Positions 1,407 through 30,954 of a stretch of DNA of 32,000 nucleotides are shown here, piece after piece. Each line of letters opens with the position of its first letter. Within the stretch, counting starts at the first letter, position 1. Below the pieces are notes generated by a model. It was not told the origin of the DNA, made no database searches, and saw only the letters and a list, made by a program, of their open reading frames with translations. Made by a program: the position numbers and the translations under genes. Location: assembly GCF_000027325.1 (NCBI RefSeq), contig NC_000908.2:60001-92000 (forward strand), in the 5' to 3' direction. The stretch is from Mycoplasmoides genitalium G37. Its GTDB lineage: Bacteria > Bacillota_I > Bacilli_A > Mycoplasmatales > Mycoplasmoidaceae.

Positions 1407-3058
1407 TGGATAAACTTAGATTAGAAGTTGAAAGATGGTTAAATCATCCTAATGTTAATTGGGAGTTAAAACAACAAATTAAGGAGTTGAATGAATCAGA
1501 AATTCAAGAACTTTTTAGTTTGGAAAAACCTTTATTTGGCACTGCAGGTGTAAGAAACAAAATGGCACCAGGTTATCATGGTATGAATGTTTTTTCTTAT
1601 GCCTATTTGACCCAAGGTTATGTTAAGTACATTGAATCCATCAATGAACCAAAGCGTCAACTACGGTTTTTAGTAGCACGTGATACAAGAAAAAATGGTG
1701 GTTTATTTTTAGAAACGGTTTGTGATGTAATTACATCTATGGGTCATTTGGCTTATGTGTTTGATGATAACCAGCCAGTTTCAACACCTCTAGTGTCCCA
1801 TGTCATTTTTAAATATGGTTTTAGTGGAGGTATTAATATCACAGCTAGCCATAACCCTAAAGATGATAATGGTTTTAAGGTTTATGATCATACTGGTGCA
1901 CAGCTTTTAGACACACAAACAAACCAATTGTTAAGTGATTTACCTTGTGTTACATCTATGCTAGATTTGGAATTACAACCAAATCCAAAGTTTGTCCATA
2001 CTCTTGACAATGAAAAGGTTTATAAAAACTATTTCAGAGAGTTGAAAAAGGTGTTGGTTATTAACAACAACAATTTCAAAGACATTAAGGTAGTTTTTAG
2101 TGGGCTTAATGGGACTTCAGTTTGCTTAATGCAACGCTTTTTAAAGTACCTTGGTTATAGCAATATTATCAGTGTTGAGGAACAAAATTGGTTTGATGAG
2201 AATTTTGAAAATGCTCCTAACTTAAATCCAGAGTATAAAGATACATGGATATTAGCACAAAAATATGCTAAGAAAAATAATGCTAAGTTAATTATTATGG
2301 CAGACCCTGATGCTGATAGATTTGCAATTGCAGAGTTAAATAATAATCAATGACATTATTTTTCAGGTAATGAAACAGGAGCAATTACTGCTTACTATAA
2401 ACTTAATCATAAGGTTTTTAAATCACCTTACATTGTCTCAACTTTTGTCTCAACTTATTTGGTAAATAAGATTGCTAAAAGATATGGCGCTTTTGTGCAT
2501 AGAACCAATGTTGGTTTTAAGTACATTGGTCAAGCAATTAATGAGTTATCACAAACAAACGAATTAGTTGTTGGTTTTGAAGAGGCAATTGGTTTAATAA
2601 CTAGTGATAAATTAAACCGCGAGAAAGATGCTTATCAAGCTGCTGCATTATTGCTTGAGATTGCTAGACATTGCAAAGAACAAAACATCACGCTTTTAGA
2701 TTTTTATAAAAGAATTCTTTCTGAGTTTGGTGAATATTTCAATTTAACAATATCTCATCCCTTTAAAGCTACTGCTACTGATTGAAAAGAAGAGATTAAA
2801 GCTTTATTTAATCAACTTATAAATGCTAATTTAACTGAAGTGGCTGGTTTTAAAGTAGTTAAAGTCCATCTTGATAAACAAACAAATATCTTAGAGTTTG
2901 GTTTTGAAAATGGCTGGGTTAAATTCCGCTTTTCAGGTACTGAACCTAAATTGAAATTTTACTTTGACCTAACTAATGGCACTAGAGAGGCTCTAGAAAA
3001 GCAAGCTAAGAAAATTTATAAATTCTTTGTAAATTTACTCAAACTCAACAAAGCTTAA
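1406..3058 (+). CDS. manB: Phosphomannomutase/phosphoglucomutase family protein (alpha-D-phosphohexomutase)
   Basis: Three frame-2 pieces (1406..2353, 2459..2785, 2840..3058) join across TGA 2351-2353 and 2783-2785 with no TAA/TAG between them. Motifs present: TASHNPKDDNGFKVY (catalytic Ser loop), DPDADR (metal loop), GFEEAIG and RFSGTEPK (phosphate loop). Confidence 0.9.
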
Positions 3059-3985
3059 ATTTTCTAAAGGTAAGTTAATTAATTGGGTTTTAGATGTTAA
3101 TTCTATCTCTACAACTGCTTTGTTAACTGTACCTTGATAAAGTGCTTTTATCTGTCCTTGAACATGAATAGTATCAGTTAAATGTACCTCTACTAAATTA
3201 CCAACACTAAATTCAAAGAGTTGTTCAACTTTATTGTCAGTATCAAGAATTTCATATTTGCCCAAAAAAGGAACTAATACTGATGGATCAAGTTTGGTTT
3301 GCTCACTTTGAATAATCGTTGCTTTTTCTTTCCATTCATCTTGTTCTTGACTATTTTGTAGTTTTTTAAAAGCTTCTTTTAGTTTTTCAGCATCAACAAT
3401 TTCTGAATCTTCATCCTCTTTTGGTTTTTGAATGGCTTGTTTTTGTTTTAAGATATATTGAAATTTTTCATCAAATTTATCACTGTCCATTTCAATAATG
3501 GCAGTATTTGTTAGCATAATTCGTTTGCTAGGATTGATTGATATCCCTTTAAGCATTTGTTCTAAATTATTAGCATCTTTTTCATCTAAAGGGATAGGTA
3601 AAGCACCCCTGCCAGAAGAACCTACTATGCCAGTGATCCCAGGGAAGTTACGAACAATTCTTCAAGCATCTTCACTATAAATCATCTTTATGTAGATGTA
3701 TCTACCAAGGAGATTTTTTTCACTAATTTTTACCCTAAGATAACGGTAATCATCAAGAACAAACCATTTGTTAAAAGTAGTGTTCTTTAAGGAACGAGGA
3801 AGTTTTCCTGATTTTAATGAATAAACTTCTTCATGAACTTCCCTTTCTTTTAGAACTTTAACATCAACAATCTCATGATTAAATCCTAAAGCTTGAATTT
3901 TAGCTTTTAGATTTTTTACAACAGCTTCATCTTTAATACTAACAGGAGCTACATACCACTTTGGTGTTAATTCACTAGCTTGCAT
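3035..3985 (-). CDS. nusG: Transcription antitermination factor NusG, unusually long (316 aa)
   Basis: Pieces 3662..3985 and 3035..3556 share a frame and join across TGA (3664..3662). I checked 3557..3661 and found no TAA/TAG. The joined segment reads WRIVRNFPGITGIVGSSGRGALPIPLDEKD, a typical NGN-domain end. The C-terminus has a KOW-like FSVGNLVEVHLTDTIHVQGQIKAL. Confidence 0.85.
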
Positions 3986-3988
3986 AAA

Positions 3989-4360
3989 TTAATTTTTAAA
4001 TATTCCCAACGTAATTAACAATTGATTGATACCAAAAAAGATTCCTACCATCAGTCCACTAACTAGCAAAATTAAAAGAAAAATTATGATAAGTTGTCTA
4101 CCTTTTACTCAAACAATTTTGTTGATCTCTTTATCAACTCCAAATCATAAATTAACAATTCGTTTTTTAAAAGGAAGCTTGGGTTTCTTTTCCTTTGCTA
4201 AACTTTCATGCTTTTCTTTTTCTTTAGTTCTTTCCTTATCTTTACTTTTCTTGGCTTCTGTTCTAAGTTTGAGCTGTTTATGTAACTCATGAATTGAAGC
4301 ATCATCATAAGCAGTTAGCTTTTCCTTCTTTTTAAAGCTAAAAGGCAGTTTTTTTTCCAT
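3989..4360 (-). CDS. secE: Probable preprotein translocase subunit SecE with a Lys/Glu-rich N-terminal extension
   Basis: The 71-aa piece 4145..4360 ends at TGA. Read-through gives WFGVDKEINKIVWVKGRQLIIIFLLILLVSGLMVGIFFGINQLLITLGIFKN and stops at TAA 3991..3989. It has a single C-terminal TM helix and lies directly upstream of nusG, the conserved secE-nusG arrangement. Confidence 0.65.
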
Positions 4361-4366
4361 GGCTTT

Positions 4367-4513
4367 TTAAAAAGAATCTAGATGCTTAGTTTTTTGATTG
4401 CACTGCTTGCAGTACTTGTTGATGATAAGTCGCTGCAAAGGTTGTTTTGTTCACCGTTTTACATAGTTACGACTTAAACAGTCTTGACAGACAAAAATAA
4501 TCTTTTTGCGCAA
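4367..4513 (-). CDS. rpmG: 50S ribosomal protein L33 (Zn-ribbon form)
   Basis: My own translation, absent from the ORF track because it is too short: (TTG)RKKIIFVCQDCLSRNYVKRWTKQPLQRLIINKYCKQCNQKTKHLDSF, stop TAA 4369..4367. It has CxxC...CxxC and one in-frame TGA. No ATG is present in the open frame, so I chose the TTG start by homology. Confidence 0.75.
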
Positions 4514-4526
4514 CTTCAGTAGCAAA

Positions 4527-4910
4527 TTATAAATTATCTGCTTGTTTTACTAATTTAATCTTTTGATAGCAATAGAGCTGTAAAAGGCCAAAGGGTAAAA
4601 AACAAGATCAGTGTAGAATTTTTTTGAATTTAGGTTCAATATTTTCACATGCAGTATTAATTGTTTTTCAAATCATTATGCTGATAACTAACTGGATGAT
4701 CATAAAACAGATAGCAAAAACTCCTAAAACAATTAAAACTGCTCGTAAATTAAAAAAAATAGGATCACTTCTAATTGCACTTAAACTAGCTTTTCTAATT
4801 AAATCAAAGATGATACCAATCCCTACTAAAGAGATAATACAAACTAAAAAAAAGATACTAATTAACAAAAGAATCTCATTAAGGTTATGGAGTTTTTTAA
4901 ATACTTTCAT
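4527..4910 (-). CDS. Hypothetical small membrane protein (127 aa)
   Basis: Piece 4668..4910 (two clear TM helices) ends at TGA 4670..4668. Read-through continues to TAA 4529..4527. Its ATG is overlapped by 14 nt by the rsmI stop, an operon-style junction. I recognise no family. Confidence 0.5.
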
Positions 4911-5730
4911 GGAAAAGTGTATAGAGCATACTTGATTTTAAATGCATTTTTTTAGCTAAATAATTGCATGCATCTTTTAACTTAACACCAATATCCATTA
5001 ACTTCTTTATTTCATATACTAAGTATTGATTGGAAGATAATGTTTGGTGATTAATATTTTGATTATCAATAACAATTACAAATTCTCCTTTTAAAGTGAT
5101 GTCAGGTAAAGTGTTTTCACTGGTGTTAAATCAATAATGTGATTCATGTAACTTAGTTAATTCTCTTCCTATAAAAACGTCATTGTTTTTAAAAACATTT
5201 TTCACAGTTTCTAAAGTATTTTCTAACCTATGCACTGCTTCAAAAAAAACGATAGTGCTTTTCTGATTTTGATAGGTACTTAAATAATTTTTGAGCTGAT
5301 TTTGTTTGTGACTTAAAAAACCTAAAAACAAAAGTGGTGTTGTTTTAAAACCACTAGTGATCAATCCACACATTAATGCACTAGGACCATTAATAACTTC
5401 GATTCTTATCTCCTTATTTTTTGATATGATCCAATTAATCATTTCATTACCAGGATCAGATAAACTAGGATAACCTGCATCACTAACAAGACAACACTTA
5501 AAGTTAGTTATAAATTCCTCAGCAAAAGTTAAATTCTGTTTTTCTTTAAAACTGTTGTTAATAACAAACTTTTTTTGCTTGCAATCAATGTTGAGTAAAT
5601 CCAGCATTTTTCTTGTTACTCTACTATCTTCACAGAATAACACTTCACAATCTTGTAACGCTTTTTTAGCTCTTTCACTTATCTCTTGAATATTACCAAT
5701 TGGTGTAGCAACTACTTTAAGTGTTTTCAT
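4897..5730 (-). CDS. rsmI: 16S rRNA 2'-O-ribose C1402 methyltransferase (tetrapyrrole-methylase fold)
   Basis: Piece 5131..5730 joins across TGA 5133..5131 and ends at TAA 4899..4897 (277 aa); I verified this codon by codon. The N-terminus [20 protein letters not shown]...[12 protein letters not shown] matches the RsmI TPIGN/EDTR pattern. Confidence 0.85.
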
Positions 5731-6248
5731 ACATCTTGAAAAGTTAGATTTAATAAGTTAAGTTTTTTAAATAGTTGCTTGTGGTTAAAATAAGGTAAAT
5801 TAAGATTATTGCATAAAAGTAATCGCTTTTTCTTATCATTTAACTTTAAGCTTAAATACTGATCTCATAATATGCTTTGATTAGCATTTTTTGTGATTGC
5901 AACACGATTATTTAAAGCAGCAATTAAAGCACTAGTTTCCATTTCAGCAATACCAGCTTTTTTAGCGTTTTTTAACCTTGCATTCATATCAACATAACAG
6001 TTGTAATAGTTTGTTAGATGTTGTTCTAATTTACTTCTAATCTTTTTGCCTTGTTGATCTGGATCTAATAACAAGATAACAGTTTGCTTTTCACTGATTT
6101 TTTTAATTAGGTTAATAGTTTCTTTTTTTAAAGCTGAACCATTTGTTGTAATTACATCTACATCAAAAATTTGCTGTAATTTAGCTTGGTCAGTTTTACC
6201 CTCACAAACAATTACCCCATCAATTTTTATACGTGCTTTTTGATCCAT
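5712..6248 (-). CDS. rnmV: Ribonuclease M5 (Toprim domain)
   Basis: Piece 5865..6248 reads through TGA 5867..5865 to TAG 5714..5712 (178 aa). Toprim motifs are VIVCEGKTD and LLLDPDQQGKKIR. It overlaps the rsmI start by 19 nt. Confidence 0.8.
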
Positions 6249-7225
6249 TCAATGTGACGTTCATATATTGCAGAAACTGATAAGCTGTTAGCGTAACACA
6301 GAACAACCTCTTCATATAAAGATGCTAGATCAACTACTTCAAACTGCTTTACAGCTTTAAACTTATATTGAGGAATAGAGTTTGATACAAACAAGAAATC
6401 AATTAGTTTTTGATCAAATGCTTCCATAAACTTTTGTTCTGCATCATTGTTAAACAAACCATGAGTTGCCATTACACACACTTTTTTAGCTTGTTCTTTT
6501 TGTAATAGCTTGGCTGCTGCAATTACTGTACCACCAGTATCTATCATGTCATCAACTATTAAACAGTTTTTATTTTTCACTTCACCTAAAACATTAATTG
6601 ATTCAGCAACATTATGAGATGGTCTTCTTTTATCAATAATGGCTAATGGTAGTTCTAGTGTATTTGCAATTAACCTTGCTCTTTTAACCCCACCATAATC
6701 AGGGGAAACAACCACCAAGTCTTTTTTACCAAGTAGTTCTATAACTCTAAAAAGAAAGATGTGATAAGTTCTTAAAGAATCAACGGGAATATCAAAAAAA
6801 CCTTGGGTTTGATCACTATGAATGTCAGTTAGAACAACCCTGTTAGCACCTGCTTTTGTTAACATATCAGCAATCAATTTACTGGTAATTGGTTCTCTTC
6901 CTTTTGTTTTTCTATCTTGTCTTGCATATCCATAATAGGGTAGAATGGCAGTAATACTTTTAGCACTACCTCTTTTCAATGCATCAATAGCAATTAAAAG
7001 TTCCATTAAGCTATCGTTAACATTAGGACAGGTTGATTGAAAAATATAGATATCTTTGTTACGAACTGATTCATCAAAACGGATATAAGTTTCACCATCA
7101 GCAAAGTGTTCGCAAACCATTTTGCCCTCTGAAATATTTAGTTTTTTGCAGATATTTTCAACCAGTGTTTTGCTTTTAGATAAACTAAAAATAACGTGCT
7201 TTTTATTATCGATACTCAGCTTCAA
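6227..7225 (-). CDS. prs: Ribose-phosphate pyrophosphokinase (PRPP synthetase)
   Basis: Motifs: YYGYARQDRK, the PRPP loop LIVDDMIDTGGT, and VSPDYGGVKRA. The stop is TAA 6229..6227. The start is uncertain. TTG 7225 gives MKLSIDNKKHVIFSL, the N-terminal length I recall for B. subtilis Prs. The longest ORF starts at ATG 7318, 113 nt inside smpB. Confidence 0.88.
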   Translation of the reverse strand: MKLSIDNKKHVIFSLSKSKTLVENICKKLNISEGKMVCEHFADGETYIRFDESVRNKDIYIFQSTCPNVNDSLMELLIAIDALKRGSAKSITAILPYYGYARQDRKTKGREPITSKLIADMLTKAGANRVVLTDIHSDQTQGFFDIPVDSLRTYHIFLFRVIELLGKKDLVVVSPDYGGVKRARLIANTLELPLAIIDKRRPSHNVAESINVLGEVKNKNCLIVDDMIDTGGTVIAAAKLLQKEQAKKVCVMATHGLFNNDAEQKFMEAFDQKLIDFLFVSNSIPQYKFKAVKQFEVVDLASLYEEVVLCYANSLSVSAIYERHIEWIKKHV

Positions 7226-7643
7226 GCTCGCGTCGGATTGTTTTCTTTTTAATAGTTTCACGTTTGTCAAATTTCTTTTTAGGTTTTGCCAATCAAATTT
7301 CCACTTTAATTTTGCCATTTCTAAAGAATACTTTACTTGGGATTACAGATAAAGATTGTTGTTGTTTTTTATTGATAATTTGTTTAATTTCATGTTTATT
7401 TAATAAAAGTTTCTTAATTCTATCTGAAGCGTGATTTAATGGACCTGCAAAACTATAAGGTGGAATAGTGAACTGTTCTAAAAAAAGCTCATTGTTTTTA
7501 ACAAAAACATAAGCTTCTTTTAAACTACCTTGACCTAAACTTAAAGCTTTAACTTCACTTCCTTTTAAAACTATTCCAGCACAATAAGATTCCATTAAAT
7601 GATAGTCATATTTAGCCTTAGGATTGTTAACAAGAATTAACAT
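7206..7643 (-). CDS. smpB: SsrA-binding protein SmpB
   Basis: Piece 7293..7643 reads through TGA 7295..7293 into the basic tail WLAKPKKKFDKRETIKKKTIRRELEAEYR, ending at TAA 7208..7206 (145 aa). The N-terminus NPKAKYDYHL...GIVLKGSEVKAL is SmpB-like. Confidence 0.9.
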
Positions 7644-7649
7644 TTATCA

Positions 7650-8543
7650 ATGAAATTATCTGTAATTATACCTACTTACAATTGTGCATCATTTATTGAA
7701 AAAGCAATTAATTCAATTGTTAAAAATAGACCTAATGATTTGGAAATAGAAGTTTTAATTATTGATGATGGATCAATTGACAATACTAACAAAGTTATTA
7801 AGAAAATTCAAGACCAAATTAATAATTTAACTTTGCAGTATTTTTACAAAAGTAATGGTAACTGGGGTAGTGTTATTAATTATGTTAGAAACAATAAACT
7901 AGCAAAAGGGGAATGAGTAACAGTATTGGATAGTGATGACATTTTTTCAAAAAAAACAATTTCTATTTTTCAAAAATATGCCCAAAAACAAAGATATGAT
8001 GCGATTATTTTTGACTACTATAAATGCTGAAAAAAGTTTTTGTGAAAAATTCCTACCTATGCAAGGTTTAGAAAAGAAATTAAAGGTGAATTGAAAAAAC
8101 AAACACCTTTTTGTATTCCCTTAGCTAAGTTTTTTAAAAATGAGGTTTTCTATCAACTTCCTAAACTAAGAGAAAATGTTGGTTTTCAAGACGCTATTTA
8201 TACGATGCATGCATTACAAATTGCAAATAATGTTTTCCATGTTTCTAAAGCTGGAGGATATTACTTTTTTAAAAGGGTAGGTAACTCTATGAGTATCCCT
8301 TGACACAGTTCTAGGTTTGATATTGAAGTACAAATCTGCAAGGATCTGATTGAAAATAATGCGCAAGAGATCGCTTTAGTGCATTTACTTCGTTTAAAAT
8401 TTCGTAATTTAGTTGATGATAAAAAGATTAAATTTACAGTTAAAAGAGACTTTTGTTTTAGTGGTTTTAGTTGGTATAGTAGGTTAATTTTATCTCTGAT
8501 GTATAACTTCTGATTGAAACGTTATTTCAACAGTTCTGAATAA
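7650..8543 (+). CDS. Family-2 glycosyltransferase
   Basis: Frame-0 pieces 7650..7916 and 8091..8303 plus the downstream stretch join across TGA codons; I checked every codon over 7914-8093. The gene ends at TAA 8541-8543 (297 aa). It has SVIIPTYNCASFIEKAINSI, IIDDGS and VLDSDD (GT-A DxD). Confidence 0.85.
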
Positions 8544-10225
8544 CGATTTTTTTGCTTATTTGCAATTACAAACTGTCATTCATTGAGTTTTCATTTTCTT
8601 GTCATTTCCTGAACCAATTGATCACCATCTTTAATCCAACAAGCAGGAAAGAACTTAACAATTAGGTTTGCTAGTGCAATAAGTCCTAAGAAGAAAACAA
8701 TACTTACAATTACCCCTGGTAAAATACTTGTACCTTTTCCTTGAATTAAAACAGGCGCTTGGAGAAATACTGATTGGGTAATGTCAAATAAGGTGTAAGC
8801 AATATAACCAAAGCCCCAACAAAATCCAAAAAGAATAGGAAGTTCATTCTTCTTGTAATCTTTAAATTCATATGGCAGGATTAAATTTGAACTTGATAAA
8901 CTCCAAGCAAATGCACCACCGATAAATGAAAAGATACTAATTAAAGCAAACCCAGCTGCACTACCAATACCAAGTGTTGCTGCAAACATGATGATTATAA
9001 GCAATACCACTATGTTAGCTGTTAATAAGAAGTGCATTCACCTCTTCTTGTCATAAATGGTTTTATTAAATGGTGAAAAAACAACAAAGCCCAAAGCATA
9101 ACCAATAACTCAAAAAATAGCAAGTGTTGCTAAACCTGTTGTGTACACACCAGTACTTATCAAACCATTTGATCCTGATGGGGAAACAGTTTGCAAGATG
9201 CTAAATCAAGCTGGAGTTAACGGATTGACTATTAGTATTAAAACTATGCCATAAACACCAATTAATTTTCATGTTGTTTTATTCTTTAAGATATCTATGG
9301 ATTTTGGTTGAGTAGTTAAACTCATATTTTCCTTAGTTTGCTTTTGAGGAAAGATGTGATCTATCTTGCTTTCAAACCATAAAAATAAACATAAGTTAGC
9401 AAACACAACCAAAATCATCACAGTCATAATGTAAACCCAGTATTGAGAGGCTACTTGTTGAACTTGTTCAAATAAAAACGGTGTGAAAACTACTGCAATC
9501 CCAATGTTAAAACCCCAAAGGTTAGCATTAGATAGGATTGATTTTTTTCTGTTTGAAGAAAGATTAGCAATTGCTGGTTGAGTATAAACTACTAAGGTAG
9601 TTCCACCAATAGCAATTGTGCTTCTAAAGATAATAAACAATGCATAACCAGTAATTGATGCAGCTGTACCAATACTATTACCATCCAAACCCTTAATAAG
9701 TTCAACACTTGTTCCATCTGCAAGCATCGTTTTACCATTGATCATCACCGGTCCAAGTAATTGACCCACTTGTAAATTGCTACTTAGTGAACTTAATTGA
9801 GTTTTTACTGAATCTGATAAAGGTCTTAATAAAGTTAATTGATTATGACCATTCAAAGGGTCTCCTATAATAAGAAAGGGAAAACAAACACACATGATTC
9901 CCATCATGATTAAAACCGCATAACGATAACCAAATTTCAAAACAACAACTCCACAAAGAATAGAACCTACTGCTCTCAATAAAGTGATAGTTCAGTTGGT
10001 GGAAGATGTGGCTATTTGCCCAGCATTTTCAGTAAAGAAAGAACTTAACCAACCACTGTACTGTGGTAAAGTGGTGGTTGATTGAGTAAGTATACCAGTT
10101 GGTTTACCACTAATTCGATCAATTACAAACCATTCAACTACAAACAATAGATACCCAAAAATTACTATGATCCACAGGGTAATAAGTTTCAGATCACTTA
10201 CTTTTTTTTGACTTTTATTTTCCAC
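8522..10225 (-). CDS. Polytopic membrane transporter, probably MFS-type (567 aa)
   Basis: Three same-frame pieces (9992..10225, 9269..9979, 8591..9037) join; I checked 9038..9268 and 9980..9991 and found only TGA, never TAA/TAG. Read-through of TGA 8593..8591 ends at TAA 8524..8522. It is hydrophobic throughout, with many TM helices. The GTG start at 10225 is the first start after an upstream TAA. The MFS assignment comes from my memory of the MG061 annotation, not from a motif I can point to. Confidence 0.72.
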
Positions 10226-10392: not shown

Positions 10393-10481
10393 TGGCGGAA
10401 GCGGTGGGATTCGAACCCACGCACCGTAGAACGATCTAACACCTTAGCAGGGTGTCCTCTTAACCACTTGAGTACGCTCCC
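10393..10481 (-). tRNA. tRNA-Ser (anticodon GCU), class II with long variable arm and encoded CCA
   Basis: I folded the reverse complement by hand: acceptor GGGAGCG/CGCTTCC (one G-U pair), anticodon stem ACACC/GGTGT, loop CTGCTAA, a 17-nt variable arm, T-arm GTGGG-TTCGAAT-CCCAC, discriminator G, then CCA. Confidence 0.9.
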
Positions 10482-21045: not shown

Positions 21046-22596
21046 ATGTTGTATAGGTTTTGAAAAACAGGATTGGCAATTTTTATGCCTGGTTGCATCT
21101 TACTTTCATCCTGTTCTTTTAGAAGTTATATCCCAACTCCTAGTTTAAGAAATACTGTTGGTAATCACAACAGTTATGTTAATAATACTGTCCCTAAAAA
21201 CAATTTTTATGAAAAGTTTTATGATCTAACTTTTGCTTTAAATTTCACTAATCAGAAAACTCAAGAGTTTGGTACTGGTTGGTTAATTGACTGAAAAGGA
21301 GATGAAACTAAAGATCTTAATACATTAACTATTGCTAGTTCTTCTATTATTTCCTCTGTAAGTAATCATTCTTTAAAAGAAAAACAAGATGACAAGCTTT
21401 TTATTGCTTATATTGCCACCAATTTACATCTGATAGATGGTTTAAAGAATGATCATGATTATCAACCATACAATAAAGATGGAAATGGTCTTAGTTTTCC
21501 ATTTGATCAAAAAACCCAATCATTCTTATTGGGTAGGTTTGCCAATCCTAAGATAAATTCCAAACCAGAAGAGATGAACTACCAAGTTCAAACTCGTTTA
21601 AAACAAGATGCAATGGTGTTTATCCAAACCAGTACTTTACCTAAAACTGCTTATGCAGGAATTGATCCTATTAACTTTGATTACCATGAAACTAGTGATG
21701 AGAGTGGATTTTGAACTAAAAAACAAAGCACTGCAAACTTCCCTAGAACAAGAACATTAAAAAGTTATGCTGATTTTGCAGTTTTAGAGGTACCCTTATT
21801 CTTAGATAATGCTAATGATGCCAAGATTTATCAAGAGTGAATTAGACCAGCAGTTCAAGCTTATAAGGAGCTAGGGGATGTTGAAAATATTTTTGCTAAA
21901 ACCCCATACGCTGAATATATTAATAACACCTACTACTTATTGGGTTATCCTGTTACTAATAACAATAAGTATCAGTTTATCTTAGGTCAAGATGAAAAGT
22001 GAAAGTTTTCTCAACAAACTTCTGTATTAAAGCACTATCAAAAACAACCTCTTCAACAAAGAACAGTTTATGTTGAACGTGATGATGGTCTTCCTACATT
22101 AACTTTTAATGAAGATAAACTCACTCATGTTCAAGGTACTGATCTAATTAATGTTGATCAGATTACCGATACTAATTTAGGAAATGGCTTAATAAATTAT
22201 GCTGGTTTATCACGCTTTACTTTAAGCTATCACAATGTTGAATATAAGTTATTTGGTTATGGCACTATTTTAAATAATACTAATTTTCCAGGTGGATCTT
22301 CTGGTAGTGCTGTTTTCAACAAGGAAAAACAACTAACAAGTATTTACTTTGGTTCACTGATTAATGTAACAACTGGAAATAACAGGAATGTTAATTTAGG
22401 TTTGGGTCAAATTCTTCGTACTTATAACACTAATAATAGTAAGCACAGTGCACCATCATCATATGATTTAATTTTTGGTGATAAAAACACCATCAAGTTT
22501 TATGCACAGTTTGCAAAAGAAAAGCAAACTCATCTTTGAAATAAAATTCAAACATCTGTTAACTCTTCAATCAGCTTTTACAAAGACAAAAAATAA
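21046..22596 (+). CDS. Lipoprotein with a trypsin-like serine-protease-type domain (DUF31-like), paralogue 1 (516 aa)
   Basis: ATG 21046 gives MLYRFWKTGLAIFMPGCILLSSCSF, a signal peptide with lipobox LSSC. I read frame 1 through all TGAs to TAA 22594-22596. Motifs: GTGWLIDW, ATNLHLIDG, YADFAVLEVPLF, FPGGSSGSAVFN. Confidence 0.85.
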
Positions 22597-22619
22597 TAAT
22601 TAACTAACAATTTGTATTT

Positions 22620-24044
22620 GTGTTAAGACGTTATCTAACTCTGAGTTTTTCTAGCTTGCTTTTATTAGCACTGCTGTTTTTAACAGGCTGTTCTTTTGTT
22701 AGACCACAATTTCGCAGGGGCTTTAGAACCCAGTTTAAAATTAACTCTATTCCAACTGTTAGTGATCCTTATCACATTAACTACGACTTAACTTTTTCAT
22801 TAAACTTTGCTTCCAACAAAAGAAATACTTATGGTACTGGTTGGTTAATTGATTGGAAAGGAGATGAAAATAACCCTGAGAAAAATGATCCTTTTAAAGT
22901 TTATTTAGCTACTAACCTCCATGTGATAGATGCTTTAAGAAATAATAATGACTATGAACCATATAACAAGGATAGTAATAACCAAGCTTTTAATAGTGAA
23001 GAGATCACTAGGTTCTTTTCTATAGGTAAATACACATATCCTAGTATTTTTAGTGAATTAAATTTCATTATCAATGCTAGAGAAGCGTTTGTTTCGATTC
23101 AAACCTCTACTATTCCTAAAACTGCTTATGCTGCTGTTAACTTTGTTGAAACACAAGGAGAGGATGAAAGTTATACAGATTCATTATCAACTGATAATAA
23201 AAGAGATATTTATGCGGATTTTGCTGTGATAGAAATTCCCTTATTCTTAACTAACCATCGCGATTATCAAGTATTTAATGAATTTATTAAACCAGCAATA
23301 GAAACATACAAACAACTAGGAAACTCTTCCTTTGAAAAAAAACAACTAGATCAACATAAAAACGACAACTTTTACATGTTAGGTTATCCTTTGGTTGAGA
23401 GTAGCATAGATGCTCTAATTTTGAACCAAAGAAGACAGTACAATAACAGTTATACTGAAAAATATACTCCTCAAACTTTAACCAAAGATCAACGTACCAT
23501 TGACTTAAGCAGAGAAGTTCCTACTTTAATTCAGAACAAAACAGAAAACTCTACAGGAAGTCAATTACTAGTAAATCAATCTTTAAGTAGTACATCTGAA
23601 GGGATTATTGAATTTATTAAGTTACCTGAATTTAAACTCAATTATCATAATAAAAGTTACCGTCAATATGGTAGAGGTTTTGCTCTACAAAACACTAACT
23701 TTAGACCAGGTTCTTCAGGAACTTTAATGTTAAATAACCAAAAACAGATAGCAGGTATTTATTTTGGTGTTTTAGATTTTGGAGAAGATGTAAGTTTAAT
23801 GAGTAACATTGGCGTTGGACAAATTCTTCGTGTTCCTCAAAAGAACAATACTAGAAATAGATCAATTGCTACTAATAAAAGCAACTATGATTTGATCTTT
23901 GGTGATAGCAATACAACTAACTTTTATGCAAAATTTGCTAGACAAAATAACACCCATCTTTATCAGATGATTTCAAATAGTAAAGATACAAAATTAAAGT
24001 ATGTGAATACTGTTGAAAAAACAGTAAAAGCTAGTATTAAATAA
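22620..24044 (+). CDS. Lipoprotein with a trypsin-like serine-protease-type domain (DUF31-like), paralogue 2 (474 aa)
   Basis: The GTG start is the first start after an upstream TAA. MLRRYLTLSFSSLLLLALLFLTGCSF carries lipobox LTGC. Motifs: GTGWLIDW, ATNLHVIDA, YADFAVIEIPLF, FRPGSSGTLMLNN. It is collinear with the upstream paralogue. Confidence 0.85.
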   Translation: MLRRYLTLSFSSLLLLALLFLTGCSFVRPQFRRGFRTQFKINSIPTVSDPYHINYDLTFSLNFASNKRNTYGTGWLIDWKGDENNPEKNDPFKVYLATNLHVIDALRNNNDYEPYNKDSNNQAFNSEEITRFFSIGKYTYPSIFSELNFIINAREAFVSIQTSTIPKTAYAAVNFVETQGEDESYTDSLSTDNKRDIYADFAVIEIPLFLTNHRDYQVFNEFIKPAIETYKQLGNSSFEKKQLDQHKNDNFYMLGYPLVESSIDALILNQRRQYNNSYTEKYTPQTLTKDQRTIDLSREVPTLIQNKTENSTGSQLLVNQSLSSTSEGIIEFIKLPEFKLNYHNKSYRQYGRGFALQNTNFRPGSSGTLMLNNQKQIAGIYFGVLDFGEDVSLMSNIGVGQILRVPQKNNTRNRSIATNKSNYDLIFGDSNTTNFYAKFARQNNTHLYQMISNSKDTKLKYVNTVEKTVKASIK

Positions 24045-24081
24045 AACAAAATAGTGACTTTCTTTTTTTATACTCATAAAA

Positions 24082-24408
24082 ATGGAAAATCAAAACAGTT
24101 GTAGTTCTGTAAAAGAAAAAGAGTTATATAATCCAAAAAAGCCTTTTCTTTTTGCGGTAATTTCTTTCTTTGTTTTCATAATATTTTTTGCTTTAGCAGG
24201 TTCATTTACCAAATTTGCATTAGAAGAAAGCAGGGGTTATAGTTTTCTTGTTATTGTCTGTTATCTTCTAGGAACAGTTTGTTTTTTTGTTTTTATCTAT
24301 TTTTGGTTTTGATTCTTATCTGAATTTTTTGCAAATAGAGTTCTAGTTAAGTTATGAGATTTACCTACTAAAAAGAGAAGAAAAAGACATGCAAAAAAAC
24401 AAAGATAA
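24082..24408 (+). CDS. Hypothetical 2-TM membrane protein with a basic C-terminal tail (108 aa)
   Basis: Piece 24082..24312 ends at TGA. Read-through gives ...WFLSEFFANRVLVKLWDLPTKKRRKRHAKKQR and stops at TAA 24406-24408. It has two hydrophobic helices and sits 37 nt after the lipoprotein gene on the same strand. Confidence 0.5.
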
Positions 24409-24420
24409 TTAGTTAAGTTT

Positions 24421-24457
24421 TAATAACTCAGTTGGCAAATAAATTAGGGAGTTATTA
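24421..24457 (+). terminator. Weak candidate hairpin after the 108-aa ORF
   Basis: TAATAACTC (24421-24429) and GAGTTATTA (24449-24457) form perfect 9-bp arms around a 19-nt loop, with a T-run at about 24466-24471. The stem is AT-rich and the loop long, so termination is doubtful. Confidence 0.25.
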
Positions 24458-24504
24458 GAACGCTATTTTTTATTAATTTAAGTGTTTGTTTAAAATTTAT
24501 TAAG

Positions 24505-24530
24505 TACTTTTTTAACTTGTTAAAAAAGTA
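24505..24530. promoter_or_regulatory. Perfect 12-bp-arm palindrome (possible operator or hairpin)
   Basis: TACTTTTTTAAC tt GTTAAAAAAGTA, ending 21 nt upstream of the GTG at 24551. Confidence 0.3.
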
Positions 24531-24550
24531 GTTATTTTATTAGTTGGAAA

Positions 24551-25555
24551 GTGCAAAAAGAATTAAATATTTCAAATGATAAAAAGACTTGTTTAAATGA
24601 AATAGAAACAAGCAAAGTTAAATTTCTAACAACAACTTTAATTTTGTTGTGATCAATATTAATAACACTCTTAGTTGTTGTTAGTGTATTAGCATTTAAT
24701 TTCATTTTATTAGGATCTACTAAACAAGGATTACCAAATACCAATGAAATAGAGACACTAAAAAGTTCATTAGCCTTGCAATTATCACAAAATGGTGTGA
24801 TCTTATCAATAGCACTACTTGCTTTTTTTAGTTGGATGGCAATTGTTGGAATTCACAGCTTTTTAGTTGGAATTTTAGTTAATCATCAAACACTTAAAAT
24901 AAGTAAAAAGTATGTTATTTTAGGTTCGATTTTTCCAATTATGGCATTAACAAATACTCTTGTAATTAGAAAAAAATTAAAAGCTTTATTAGGAGAGGGT
25001 AAGGTTCAAAAAGGACTCAAAGTTTTAACTATTAGTTTTATTTGTGTTTGAAGCTTGCAATTGATAATAGGCTTTTTTGTATGACTTTTTCCTTATGCTG
25101 GTGAGGCAGGAATTAATATAGGAATTAATTTATCTATTTTTAATTTGGCTCAGTTAGTAGGCTCAGATATAAATGTAATAACTTACTTTACAACTTTTTT
25201 AACGCTGCTTTTTGCATTTCTTTCATGAGCCGTATTGCATGTTTTAGCTTGCTTTATTTTGGTACATTTGACTATTTATAAACAACAAGAATGAATAAAA
25301 ATTAAAGCTATTTACATTTTGGCTTTAACCTTAATTGATTTAATGGGTTTAATTTTGGCTTTTGGTATTATTGTTGTTAACAATACAAATTCTTCAAGTG
25401 TTGATGCAAAATCAAATTCCTTAGCATTAATTTTTAAGTTCATTTATTTTGGTAGTTCTATAGCAGCCTTTTTAACAGTTTTAAGTTTTGCTAGTTCAGT
25501 TGCTTTACTTGTCAATTTAATAAAAAAAGATAAGGGATTAACCTTAAAAAATTAG
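24551..25555 (+). CDS. Hypothetical polytopic membrane protein (334 aa if the GTG start is correct)
   Basis: Frame 2 is open from 24524 to TAG 25553-25555 once 5 in-frame TGAs are read as Trp. This unites ORF-track pieces 24776..25051 and 25319..25555. Each of those Trp residues lies in or beside a hydrophobic segment (LLWSIL, CVWSLQ, FVWLFP, LSWAVL). There are about 8 hydrophobic helices. I recognise no family. Confidence 0.55.
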
Positions 25556-25561
25556 TTAACC

Positions 25562-25998
25562 TCCCCCAACCTCTATTTTCTGTTACTAGTGCCTAAGGTG
25601 GTATTGGAGTATCACAAGCTCAGTAAGGATGTAGTCAAAGAGAGTTTGGGGGTGGATACATCAGGTTCAACTTTTGATCCAACTAAAAGGTTGAAAAAAG
25701 ATAGTCCAATGAAGGATTCAAACAAAGACAGTGAGAAACTCACCGAAGCAACTGCTTCATCCATGAGTAGTGGTGGGGCTACATCCACTCGCAAGGCCCT
25801 CAAGGTTGAGGTGGAGAAACAAAGTGGATCAACTGATTCACTTTTAAAAAACGACTTTGCTAAAAAGCCACTAAAGCATAAAGAAAATAGTGGGGAGGTG
25901 AAGTTGGATGCGAGTGGGGAGTTTGCCAATGATAAAGCCTGAAAACCGGTGTTGAAAACAGATGAGATAACAAGAGAGAGGGGGATGGGGGCGACTTA
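25562..25998 (+). pseudogene. MgPar block resembling mgpB region B (frame 2)
   Basis: SPNLYFLLLVPKVVLEYHKLSKDVVKESLGV...TASSMSSGGATSTRKALKVEVEKQSGSTDSLLKNDFAKKPLKHKENSGEVKL...WKPVLKTDEITRERGMGAT, then TAG 25996-25998. Confidence 0.75.
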
Positions 25999-26598
25999 GA
26001 CTTTCTCCCCTGAATCGGCAATGGTTATTCCTTCTCCAACTCCCCCTCCCCTTCTTCTTCTTCTTCTACTACTTCTACTTCCTCTTCTACCCCACTCCCC
26101 ACTTTTTCTAACATCAATGTTGGGGTTAAATCAATGATCACTCAACACTTAAATCAGCAAAACACCCGGTGGGTGTTTACCCCTAACTCTTCACCAGACA
26201 TCTGAACGGGAGCAGGGTATCGCAAGGGTTCATCAAACACCAACGGCATTCCCTTCGACCAGGTGAAACCTAGCAATAATAGTCAACAGTTTAATCCCAA
26301 TTCAGATGATAATAAAGTCACTTCAGGTGGCTCCTCCAAACCAACCACCTACACCCATTTACCCAACAGTATCAGTCCCACCAGTGACTGGATCAATGCG
26401 TTGACTTTCACTAATAAGAATAACCCGCAAAGAAACCAACTGTTGCTCAGAGCACTGTTAGGAACGATCCCGGTATTGATCAATAAGAGTGGAGGAAGTG
26501 GGAATGAGTTTACCCATACGAGTGAGCAGCAGTGAAACGAAACAGATAAATTAGGAGGTAACCTCCCGGGGTTTGGGGAGGTGAATGGCGGTTTTTAC
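25999..26598 (+). pseudogene. MgPar block resembling mgpB region EF (frame 1)
   Basis: DFLPWIGNGYSFSNSPSPSSSSSTTSTSSSTPLPTFSNINVGVKSMITQHLNQQNTRWVFTPNSSPDIWTGAGYR...[37 protein letters not shown]...GNLPGFGEVNG. Confidence 0.75.
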
Positions 26599-26785
26599 CC
26601 AGTTTTACTTATTTAATAGTTAAAAAAGCTTTAGATTTTTATCAAATTTTTATCTATTTAATATTTAAGAAAGTCGCAAATTTTTATCAGTTTATTGGTC
26701 AAAGAAGTCGCAAATTTTTCTTAGTTTTTTATTTGCTTAATGGTTAAAAAAGCGTTAGTTTTTACCTTTATTTAATTAATAAACT
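26599..26785. repeat. AT-rich intra-MgPar spacer with two pairs of imperfect direct repeats
   Basis: A1 is 26613-26641 (TTAATAGTTAAAAAAGCTTTAGATTTTTA) and A2 is 26737-26764 (TTAATGGTTAAAAAAGCGTTAGTTTTTA). B1 is about 26668-26693 (AGAAAGTCGCAAATTTTTATCAGTTT) and B2 is about 26702-26727 (AAGAAGTCGCAAATTTTTCTTAGTTT). The order is A-B-B-A, all direct. Confidence 0.8.
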
Positions 26786-27545
26786 TCGCCACCCCCATCA
26801 CCGATTCTAAGGCTGATCTGGTTAGTTTGGCACAACTAGATGATTCCTATCAAATCTCCGACCAAACCATCCATAACACCAACCTGTTTGTGTTGTTCAA
26901 GTCCAAGGATGTGAAGCTTACATATAGTTCAAGTGGCTCAAATAACCAGATTAGTTTTGATTCAACTAGTCAAGCTAACAAACCCGCCTACATCGTTGAA
27001 TTTACTAATTCCACCAACATTGGCATCAAGTGAAGCGTGGTGAAAAAATATAAGTTAGATGTGCCAAGTGTTTCAACAACCATGAACCAAGTGTTGCAAG
27101 AATTGATCCTTGAACAACCTTTGACTAAGTATACGCTTAATAGTAGTTTGGCCAAAGAGAAGGGCAAAAGCCAAAGGGAGGTGCATCTGGGTTCAAATTC
27201 AAATCAGTGACGATCGATGCGTGACCAACACGGCTTAAACAACAATCCCAGCCCAAATGCTTCAACTGGATTTAAACTCACTACCGGCAACGCATATAGA
27301 AAACTAAGTGAGTCCTGACCAATTTATCAACCAATTGATGGGACCAAGCAGGGCAAAGGGAAGGATAGTAGTGGGTGGAGTTCAACTGAAGCAACAACGG
27401 CAAAAAATGATGCGCCCAGTGTTTCTGGAGGGAGATCATCAGATCAAAGTAATAAATTCACCAAGTACCTCAACACCAAGCAAGCATTGGAAAGGATCGG
27501 TATCTTGTTTGAAAGTAATGGAGAGGCGAGGAATGTTGTTAGCCT
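26776..27545 (+). pseudogene. MgPar block resembling the mgpC (P110/MG192) variable region (frame 1)
   Basis: FATPITDSKADLVSLAQLDDSYQISDQTIHNTNLFVLFKSKDVKLTYSSSGSNNQISFDSTSQ...EFTNSTNIGIKWSVVKKYKLDVP...LILEQPLTKYTLNSSLAKEKGKSQREVHLGS...NNNPSPNASTGFKLTTGNAYRKLSESWPIYQPIDGTKQGKGKDSSGWSS...KFTKYLNTKQALERIGILF. Confidence 0.7.
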
Positions 27546-27757
27546 CCTTCCTCTACTTTCAACCCAACAAGGTGAAAAGTGGTCAATACCAAACCACCAA
27601 CACCTACAACAAGTTAATTGAACCTGACAAGTGACAATCAAGTAGTGATTTGAACAATATGACCAACTTGTTAAAACTCCTAACAACTAAAAATGTGAAA
27701 GCAAAGTTGGGGAAGACAGCCCAATCTCAGGAAAATAGTGGGGGGGTGAAATGATAA
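27546..27757 (+). pseudogene. MgPar block resembling mgpB region G (frame 2)
   Basis: ...FQPNKVKSGQYQTTNTYNKLIEPDKWQSSSDLNNMTNLLKLLTTKNVKAKLGKTAQSQENSGGVKW, then TAA 27755-27757. The frame differs from the preceding block. Confidence 0.65.
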
Positions 27758-27934
27758 AAATGTTTTTAAATAACTACATTAATTCTCTTAAACTTACTAA
27801 ATTATTTTTCCATTTCGAACTATTATTTGAAAAAAGTTATTAATTGCAAGTTGATAAAGAAAATGAAGCAAAATAACAAGAAAGAATTATCTAAATTTAA
27901 ATAGACTAGAATTAAATTAAGACCAAAATGTTGC

Positions 27935-28207
27935 ATGCAAACAACATATGCTCTTTTAGTTGTTTTTGGAATTTTATTAGTTCTAATTGGACTAGGATTT
28001 TTATTTTGAGCTTTAAAAATTTCACTTAAAGAACAAAAGAAAGGTCAAATTACTAATGATTTGACTTCCAATAACTCACTTAAAAATGAAGTTCCTAGAG
28101 GGAGTTGATGAAAAAGAAACAACAAATTAGTTTTATTTTTGCTTGCAATAGTTTTTTTAATGCTAGGAATAGGTGGACTTGTTTCCCTTCCTAAGCTGTT
28201 TGGTTAA
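27935..28207 (+). CDS. Possible small 2-TM hairpin membrane protein (90 aa)
   Basis: My own code-4 translation, absent from the ORF track: MQTTYALLVVFGILLVLIGLGFLFWALKISLKEQKKGQITNDLTSNNSLKNEVPRGSWWKRNNKLVLFLLAIVFLMLGIGGLVSLPKLFG, stop TAA 28205-28207. It contains three TGA codons, two of them adjacent. It ends 20 nt before ptsG. Confidence 0.4.
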
Positions 28208-28227
28208 TAAAATTTAGTAGTTTTAAA

Positions 28228-30954
28228 ATGCAGATTAGTTTAGTTAAAATCCGCAATAAGTTTAAACAAAGAAACCGTGGTTCTTTTCGTCAGTGAGTTG
28301 GTAAGCTTTCCAACGGTTTGATGATCCCTATTGCAGTTTTGCCTTTAGCAGGTATTTTTTTAGGAATCGGTGATGCCATTTCTTCCAATTCATCTGGCAT
28401 TGTTGGTGTGAAATTTTTTGGTGAATTTATTAAACAAGGTGGTAATGTAGTTTTTGCTAACTTACCTATTTTGTTTGCAGTTGCAATTGCGATCACCTTT
28501 TCTCAAGATGCAGGGGTTGCTGGATTTTCTGCTTTTGTTTTTTGGGCCACAATGAACGCGTTTATGAGTTCATTAATTATTCCTGTTGATGCAAATAATA
28601 CTGCTTCAGGTTATAACATCCTTTATTGAAAAGCAGTACCTCAGTCAGCAATTGCTTCTACTTTAGGATTAAATTCACTTTCAACTTCAGTTTTTGGTGG
28701 GATTATAGTAGGGGCTTTAACTGCATATTTATATAACAAGTTTTATGCAATTAGATTGCCTGATGTAATTGGGTTTTTTAGTGGTACTAGGTTTGTTCCT
28801 ATTATTTGTATGACTATTGCTATTCCAGTAGCATTACTTTTATTGATGGTTTGACCTGGTGTTTCTATCTTATTAAATTTAATAGGAACTGGGCTTGGAA
28901 TCTTAGGTGGAAGAGGATATGGTGCTAACAGTTTAATCTTTGGATATATAGAAAGAGCACTAATTCCTTTTGGAGTACATCATGCCTTTTATGCACCATT
29001 ATGATATACAAGTGCAGGCGGTAGTTTGCAAGAAATTGCAAATCAACAAGTTTGGATTAGAGCTCCTGGTAGTGATTATGTAACCAGAGTGATAGGTTGA
29101 GAAGATTTTAATACTCCAGGAAAATGAGTTATTCCTGCTGCTTTAGCTAATGGAACAAGTGGAATGATGAATGGAGCTACTACAACAGGACAAGATAGTA
29201 CATCTGCACTTTCAAAATACATGAGTAAAGAATCAACAAACTTTCTAAGTTGAAAAGAACTTGTTGATGGTCTTACACGTAAAGGTAACTTTGATGAATT
29301 GGCTAAAAACGGTTTATTAGATGGTTCTAACAAGATTTGAATTGGTTTAAACCAGTCAGGGATCTTAGGTAAAAAAGTACTGTTAAGTGATGGTAAGGAC
29401 TACACTATTACCTTTAAAACTTTTGCTAACACCACGCCAACATTCTGAAGCCATGGTGCTCATGCACTTTTACCAATTAGTGGAACTCCAAGTGCAATAA
29501 CTAATGGAGTTACTGTTAATGGTACTGCTAATTCTAAAACCTATAATGTCAGTCAGTTCACTGTTGCAGTTCCTTCTTTAAACCCAGCACAATATTCCCA
29601 AGGTAAATTCCCATTCATGCTAATTGGAATTCCAGCAGCTGGACTTGCAATGATCTTAGCTGCTCCTAAGGGTAGAAGAAAAGAAGCTAGTTCTATTATT
29701 GGTAGTGCTGCATTCACTAGTTTTCTAACAGGGATCACCGAACCTTTTGAATTTACCTTTCTTTTCTTAGCACCATGGTTATTCTATGGTATCCACGCTG
29801 TATTAGCTGCAGTAAGCTTTTGATTAATGAACTTATTGAGTGCTAACGTTGGACAAACCTTCTCAGGTTCTTTCATTGACTTTATCTTGTATGGGGCTTT
29901 ACCTGATGGTAGGGGTTGATTAGCAAACTCTTACTTAGTACCTATTATTGGTATCTTTTTAGCATTGATTTATTTCCCTACCTTCTATTTCTTGACAATT
30001 CGCTTTAACTTAGCAACTCCTGGTAGAGGTGGTAAGTTAATTACTAAAAAGGAATATTTAGCAGCAAAAGCAGCTCAAAAAACTGATCAAACTACTAACA
30101 CTAACTTTAATCAAACCCAAATTGAAGCTGGTATGTTACTAAGAGCTTATGGTGGAAGTGAAAACATTGCTGAATTAGGGGCTTGCATTACTAAATTAAG
30201 AGTAACAGTTAAAAACCCTGAACTTGTTAATGAAACTATTATTAAAGACTTGGGAGCAGCTGGGGTAATGCGTACCACTCCAACATTCTTTGTAGCAGTG
30301 TTTGGTACTCGAGCTGCTGTTTATAAATCAGCAATGCAAGATATTATCCAAGGCAAAGTAAATTGAACAGAGTTGCAAAAAGTCTTAGATAAAAATGATA
30401 GTACTGTTGAAAAACCAGAAATAAAACCAACCCCAGTTTTAAAAGTTCAAGATGAAATTGTGATCCTCTCACCAGTTAATGGCACCTTAAAACCGCTCAC
30501 CCAAGTTCCTGATGATACCTTCAAAAATCGTTTGGTAGGAGATGGAATTGCTATCTTACCTAGCGATGGGCACTTCAAAGCACCAGGTGATGTGGGTGTG
30601 AAAACTGAACTTGCTTTCCCTACTGGTCATGCCTTTATCTTTGATGTTGATGGTGTGAAAGTAATGCTTCACATTGGGATTGATACAGTAAAAATTAATG
30701 CTGATAAAAAACCAGGGGAACAACTTGAAGTGTTTGATGTAAAAACAAAACAAGGAGAATACACTAAATTAAAGAGTGAAAGTGTTGTTGAAGTTGATTT
30801 AAAGAAACTTAAACGAAAGTATGATCCAATCACTCCTTTCATTGTGATGCAAGAATCACTTGATAACTTCAAGTTGGTGCCAATTCGCCAACGTGGTGAA
30901 ATTAAAGTTGGCCAACCTTTATTTAAACTAATTTATAAAGATAAGAAGAGTTAA
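28228..30954 (+). CDS. ptsG: PTS glucose-family EIICBA component (908 aa)
   Basis: ATG 28228 gives [50 protein letters not shown]. All the frame-1 ORF-track pieces (28318.., 29617.., 29965.., 30373..30954) join across many TGAs. Motifs: [12 protein letters not shown] (EIIC), [17 protein letters not shown] (EIIB Cys), GDGIAILP...HIGIDTV (EIIA His). Confidence 0.92.

Follow-up and report, generated by a model that had tools for sequence, protein, structure and literature searches.

Silent cassettes are promoterless partial gene copies that feed one expression locus and thereby bring about antigenic variation, as described for pilS of Neisseria gonorrhoeae and vlsS of Borrelia burgdorferi. In Mycoplasma pneumoniae, the archive of the P1 and P40/P90 adhesin genes consists of RepMP2/3, RepMP4 and RepMP5. 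These dispersed partial copies are limited to variable parts of the adhesin operon orthologous to that of M. genitalium and exchange sequence with a single expression site by recombination, and the MgPars of Mycoplasma genitalium follow the same principle. Here, we analyzed a 32,000-nucleotide stretch of the M. genitalium G37 chromosome (nt 60001-92000; hereafter the window, from whose first letter positions are counted unless stated otherwise). We are almost certain that region 25558-27757 of the window corresponds to MgPar 1, which belongs to a set of nine partial copies of the MgPa adhesin operon archived in the genome. MgPar 1 is already a known and published element of the type strain (Ma et al. 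2007, PMC2169797; Ma et al. 2010, PMC3004944), and nothing in the region is new. Together, the MgPa operon and the nine repeats make up approximately 4.7% of the chromosome (PMC3004944). Exchange between mgpBC and the MgPars was shown to be reciprocal, segmental and RecA-dependent, to be raised by the alternative sigma factor σ20, and to give rise to antigenic and phase variants (PMC2169797, PMC3004944, PMC7549776, PMC4575044, PMC4446450, PMC6105099).

Identity and architecture of the region

Window positions 22134-30616 are byte-identical to 82134-90616 of CP159789.1, and in G37 coordinates the region spans nt 85558-87757, a chromosomal site that is one of the nine known MgPar sites in G37. 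The published MgPar 1 primer 1F2 (G37 86583-86602) falls on 26583-26602, at an offset of exactly +60000, and with the same offset primer 1F8 (primer coordinates 85501-85514 in G37) falls on approximately 25494-25514. The byte identity and the primer positions together indicate that the locus is MgPar 1, which was reportedly also treated by Peterson et al. 1995 and Iverson-Cabral et al. 2006/2007. At the edges of the element, the upstream open reading frame (ORF) ends with a stop codon at 25553-25555, homology to mgpB first appears at 25562 and last at 27737-27745, and a frame-0 stop is found at 27755-27757.

The nucleotide sequence was compared by blastn with the mgpBC expression operon of this genome (locus L003; mgpB, 1583-5917, 4335 nt; mgpC, 5928-9080, 3153 nt). 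Four blocks, termed B, EF, JKL and G, match the operon (Table 1), and beyond them no operon match was found by blastn in 25300-28000. Only variable sequence is present; neither the conserved regions of mgpB and mgpC nor the start or end of either gene is represented. The order of the blocks, with a spacer between EF and JKL, is not collinear with mgpB-mgpC. At the protein level, block B matches P140 (8pbx_B) at residues 197-339 (E 2e-55), EF matches P140 at residues 765-965 (E 4e-96), G matches P140 at residues 1097-1166 (E 6e-17), and JKL matches P110 at residues 43-300 (E 1e-128). The solved structures behind these matches are labelled 'Adhesin P1' and 'Mgp-operon protein 3', which we take to be M. 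genitalium P140 and P110, respectively. The length of JKL and its restriction to the JKL division are those of the published mgpC-homologous fragment of MgPar 1 (Ma et al.), and the published identity range for the mgpC part of MgPars is 78-94%.

The composition of the element sets it apart from its surroundings. Its G+C content is 0.413, compared with 0.309 in the rest of the window. In 2200-nt sliding windows outside the element (n=254), the mean G+C content was 0.309 with a standard deviation of 0.020 and a maximum of 0.363, which places the element approximately 5 standard deviations higher. By part, the values are 0.438 for B, 0.455 for EF, 0.422 for JKL, 0.400 for the linker plus G, and 0.210 for the spacer.

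A preliminary description of this DNA had proposed a compositionally foreign 2.2-kb cassette with long frames under genetic code 4, in which regions B, EF and G of mgpB are combined with the variable region of mgpC in the non-collinear order B-EF-[AT spacer]-mgpC-G. It had assigned the cassette to the MgPars of M. genitalium and had regarded these as already known elements. The composition agrees, four stop-to-stop plus-strand frames of 147-289 codons are present, and the identity of the segments is borne out by blastn (76-84%) and by the protein matches (E 6e-17 to 1e-128). The blastn order is identical to the proposed one, the proposed boundaries are correct within approximately 20 nt, and the class assignment leads to a published locus, MgPar 1.

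Other searches with the blocks were less informative. A Pfam search of the four blocks returned nothing significant, the only hit being Adhesin_P1_C for G (E 0.0012), which is below the cut-off. As the variable regions fall outside Pfam domains, this result is not counter-evidence. A pattern search of genome contigs with the EF block gave 38 matches and no confirmed relatives; the stretches were probably masked, or the W-patterns missed TGA codons.

Table 1. Features of MgPar 1 and its surroundings. Operon match, blastn identity to mgpB or mgpC of G37; M2288, nucleotide identity between G37 and strain M2288. Open frames are stop-to-stop under code 4.
Feature	Position	Strand	Description	Operon match	M2288
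Upstream neighbours		+	transketolase, two MIP-family protease-like lipoprotein paralogues, two small membrane ORFs		
Upstream flank					99.0%
Block B	25558-25995	+	copy of mgpB variable region B, nt 589-1016 (codons 197-339); homology starts at 25562	81.1% over 440 nt (25562-25995)	90.3%
Block EF	25996-26588	+	copy of mgpB variable region EF, nt 2292-2876 (codons 765-965); directly abuts B	82.3% over 604 nt (25995-26588)	90.6%
Spacer	26589-26783		AT-rich, 195 nt, between EF and JKL		99.5%
Block JKL	26784-27512	+	copy of mgpC (P110) 5' variable part, nt 117-839; 729 bp	84.0% over 738 nt	91.0%
Linker	27513-27542	+	between JKL and G; frame change across it	no high-identity nucleotide match	78%
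Block G	27543-27757	+	copy of mgpB variable region G, nt 3305-3490 (approximately codons 1097-1166); 3' of the mgpC-like block	75.7% over 202 nt (27543-27737)	95.4%
Downstream flank					99.8%
Downstream neighbours		+	MPN207a-family PtsG accessory protein (90 aa), ptsG, rpsB		
Open frame 0	25556-25996	+	147 codons		
Open frame 2	25936-26613	+	226 codons		
Open frame 2	26776-27642	+	289 codons		
Open frame 0	27308-27754	+	149 codons		
GGGGAGGTGAA copy	25556-25566	-			
GGGGAGGTGAA copy	25892-25902				
GGGGAGGTGAA copy	26575-26585				
GGGGAGGTGAA copy	27740-27750				

Two short repeats were observed within the element. A CTT trinucleotide array at 26051-26088 (approximately 12.7 copies; program TRF, period 3) encodes a Ser/Thr run in block EF, which is 5 residues longer than that of the expressed G37 P140. 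Variation in the length of the mgpB serine repeat is known from the literature. In addition, the 11-mer GGGGAGGTGAA, allowing at most one mismatch, occurs four times in the 32-kb window, compared with 0.18 copies expected. All four copies lie in MgPar 1, and for three of them the distance to an edge of a block or of the element is at most approximately 15 nt. With the copy at the end of EF, conservation with mgpB and four other MgPars comes to an end and the sequence diverges into the spacer. We considered GGGGAGGTGAA as a recombination signal and found no basis for this, as the copy at the EF end belongs to a shared conserved stretch and the others encode in-frame Gly-Glu or Gly-Val. Its enrichment is probably a homology anchor or a coding coincidence.

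Coding capacity and divergence of the blocks

The region was translated with genetic code 4, the mycoplasma code in which TGA encodes Trp. Along MgPar 1, the open frames follow one another as 0, 2, spacer, 2, 0. Blocks B and EF abut in different frames, and JKL and G differ as well; the frame of B is shut by a TAG at 25997-25999, and that of G by the terminal TAA. Given the disordered blocks, their mutually shifted frames and the stop-rich spacer, MgPar 1 cannot yield an adhesin in place.

With no complete gene, and with AT-rich filler between disordered blocks, the region could be taken for the decaying pseudogene remnant of a duplicated adhesin operon, functionless and not a donor in recombination. 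A neutral copy at 16-24% divergence should, however, have gained stop codons and frameshifts, whereas all four blocks are in the codon phase of their parent gene and open under code 4, over 142-276 aligned codons in B, EF and JKL and 90 in G. The net length differences between the operon and blocks B, EF, JKL and G are 6, 9, 6 and 9 nt, respectively, all multiples of 3. In a protein-guided codon comparison with the operon, the ratio of nonsynonymous to synonymous divergence (dN/dS) was 0.44 for B, 0.30 for EF, 0.33 for JKL and 0.42 for G, at dS values of 0.40-0.94. The open parental frames, the multiple-of-3 lengths and the dN/dS ratios together point to selection for coding capacity in the archived copies. 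Selection on blocks that are untranslatable in place is expected if it acts after their transfer into the expression site.

The preliminary description had also suggested comparing the locus across strains for segmental exchange, and the locus was compared with that of one strain, M2288 (CP003773.1). In M2288, the locus lies between the same genes as in G37. The blocks are 90-95% identical, compared with 99.0-99.8% for the flanks (Table 1). The differences begin at the left edge of MgPar 1, end at its right edge and spare the spacer, and they are strongly clustered, with 27 in 25650-25749 and none in 25750-25849. In several 60-nt intervals, MgPar 1 of M2288 is closer to G37 mgpB or to other G37 MgPars than to G37 MgPar 1. 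Such clustered, mosaic differences would be expected if the copies and the expression site recombine with one another in segments, and they offer indirect support for such recombination. Divergence between the strains is 5-50 times faster in the blocks than in the flanks and the spacer, and this, together with the clustered mosaic, argues for ongoing exchange and not for clock-like decay. As exchange from MgPars to mgpBC is also documented in the literature, we consider it most improbable that the region is a functionless relic. An apparent 66-bp deletion in MgPar 1 of GCA_036689675.1 (L008 4813-4816, corresponding to 26947-27014 of the window) turned out to be an 'NN' scaffold gap and not a variant.

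As an archived copy, MgPar 1 would serve as donor and acceptor for the single mgpBC expression site, through RecA-dependent homologous recombination that is segmental and largely reciprocal. Every such event would equip the expressed P140 or P110 with a new variable segment and so result in antigenic variation. Some exchanges would truncate or delete the genes, resulting in phase variation.

Alignment with the other MgPars, likewise proposed beforehand alongside alignment with mgpB and mgpC, showed that MgPar 1, spacer included, is collinear with three of them at 79-82% nucleotide identity. These are MgPar 5 (229 kb, directly downstream of mgpC) and the copies at approximately 167 kb and 313 kb, all of which have the same layout of B, EF, AT spacer, JKL and G. 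In MgPar 1 and the compared MgPars, the breakpoint from EF to the spacer is also the same, directly after GGGGAGGTGAATGG. In contrast to MgPar 1, MgPar 5 carries the LM division of mgpC after G.

The spacer has a G+C content of 21% and contains stop codons in all six frames (1/6/6 on the plus strand and 6/8/8 on the minus strand). It is built of degenerate 45-nt and 34-nt units repeated in tandem (TRF periods 45 and 34; repeat families D1-D3), and no blastn match to mgpB or mgpC was found for it. It aligns with the spacers of the three other MgPars, the number of units varying between copies, and it contains the published primer 124F3, which is listed as common to MgPars 1, 2 and 4. The spacer is 92% identical to that of the 167-kb MgPar (98% over 26650-26783), whereas the adhesin blocks of the same pair are only approximately 81% identical. 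This conservation could suggest a functional module of MgPars, for example an array bound by proteins, or a barrier that keeps a heteroduplex or migrating branch in the mgpB-like blocks from reaching the mgpC-like ones. We regard such a module as unlikely, and any functional role of the spacer as possible but unsupported. That the spacer, without a partner in the expression site, is never shuffled and evolves at the background rate fits the data equally well and is the simplest explanation of its conservation.

Expression and genomic context

No observation contradicts the reading of MgPar 1 as an exchanging archive, but some points qualify it. Exchange of MgPar 1 itself with the expression site is suggested by the mosaic divergence and by the literature on the family. 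The preliminary description had called the cassette promoterless and its frames devoid of start codon context, which the sequence by itself can only suggest. Passive read-through transcription into MgPar 1 also appears plausible from the arrangement of the genes, because the element follows a co-oriented ORF by two nt. Finally, internal ORFs are annotated at 26134-26616 (as 'adhesin', by NCBI) and at 25604-25999 (by gene calls).

These annotations raise the question of whether small, independent adhesin-like proteins (one or more) are encoded in the region. Internal ORFs of 131-187 codons with ATG or TTG starts are present at 25604-25999, 26134-26616 and 27082-27645, and the 160-aa product of the second, which carries the NCBI name, is 100% identical to the database entry 'adhesin [Mycoplasmoides genitalium]'. 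All three are, however, arbitrary pieces of longer stop-to-stop frames, and the homology continues upstream of the called starts. The segments correspond to internal variable parts of P140 and P110, far from the N-termini. Moreover, σ70-type consensus sites are no more frequent than expected by chance (16 found, 16.7 expected), although promoters of M. genitalium are poorly defined, and specialists describe MgPars as lacking translational signals and not expressed. The 'adhesin' label reflects gene-calling and not evidence of expression, and we give stand-alone proteins hardly any credence.

σ20-driven non-coding transcripts exist in MgPars 4 and 5 (PMC6105099); thus, strict silence at the RNA level does not hold for MgPars as a class. 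In MgPar 1, a search for the σ20 motif TTGTCA-N18/19-ATTWAT with at most one mismatch gave no match inside 25558-27757. The best candidate for a σ20 promoter like those of the MgPar 4 and 5 non-coding RNAs (ncRNAs), TTATCA-N18-ATTTAA at 26639-26668, has two mismatches and was rejected. Around MgPar 5, two inward-pointing σ20-like motifs (TTGTCA-N18-ATTTAG) were found on either side of the element, at L003 9142-9171 (+) and 11920-11891 (-). They are likely the counterparts of the published MgPar 5 ncRNA promoters, and the left one fits the published ncRNA-2/orf192.1 promoter. These motifs lie in outer flanks of MgPar 5 that MgPar 1 does not share, and MgPar 1 lacks counterparts of them. Elsewhere in the window, a σ20-type motif (TTGTCA-N18-ATTAAA) at 7783-7754 (-), upstream of smpB, corresponds to the published candidate entry '67783 -, MG_059'. 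Two other hits with one mismatch, at 23184-23213 (+) and 29998-29968 (-), are located within genes and probably arose by chance. Three terminator-like sites were found in 24000-29000, all on the minus strand and none on the plus strand ahead of MgPar 1.

MgPar 1 is situated between the MIP-like lipoprotein genes and ptsG (Table 1). The tandem paralogous lipoprotein genes at 21046-22596 and 22620-24044 score 92.9 and 123.4 bits, respectively, with the MIP family Ig-specific serine endopeptidase model, whose cut-off is 125. Both are located approximately 1.5 kb upstream of the antigenic-variation cassette. Two hydrophobic ORFs, at 24082-24408 (108 aa) and 24551-25555 (approximately 334 aa), gave no NCBIfam match and no significant Pfam match; the second stops two nt before MgPar 1. 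The sole RNA gene detected in the window encodes tRNA-Ser (GCU) and lies at 10393-10481 (-).

Comparison with related systems

MgPars explain how an organism with a genome of approximately 580 kb can maintain long infections. When MgPar sequences are shuffled into mgpBC, P140 and P110, the immunodominant adhesins, are altered or turned off. The window adds no new biology to this picture, as the element has already been published.

With the pilS and vlsS cassettes, MgPar 1 is comparable in mechanism only, the sequences being unrelated. These cassettes mainly undergo unidirectional gene conversion, in contrast to the largely reciprocal exchange described for MgPars. To our knowledge, no guanine-quadruplex initiator has been reported for M. 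genitalium, and no search for one was made in MgPar 1.

The relationship to the RepMP elements is closer. M. pneumoniae P1 is matched by EF (E 1.8e-29) and by B (E 1.8e-5). A further 'Mgp-operon protein 3' entry, 6rj1_A, is matched by JKL at greater distance (E 9e-43) and is presumably P40/P90 of M. pneumoniae. Despite belonging to another species and having diverged much further, the RepMP elements are the nearest analogues of MgPar 1 outside M. genitalium.

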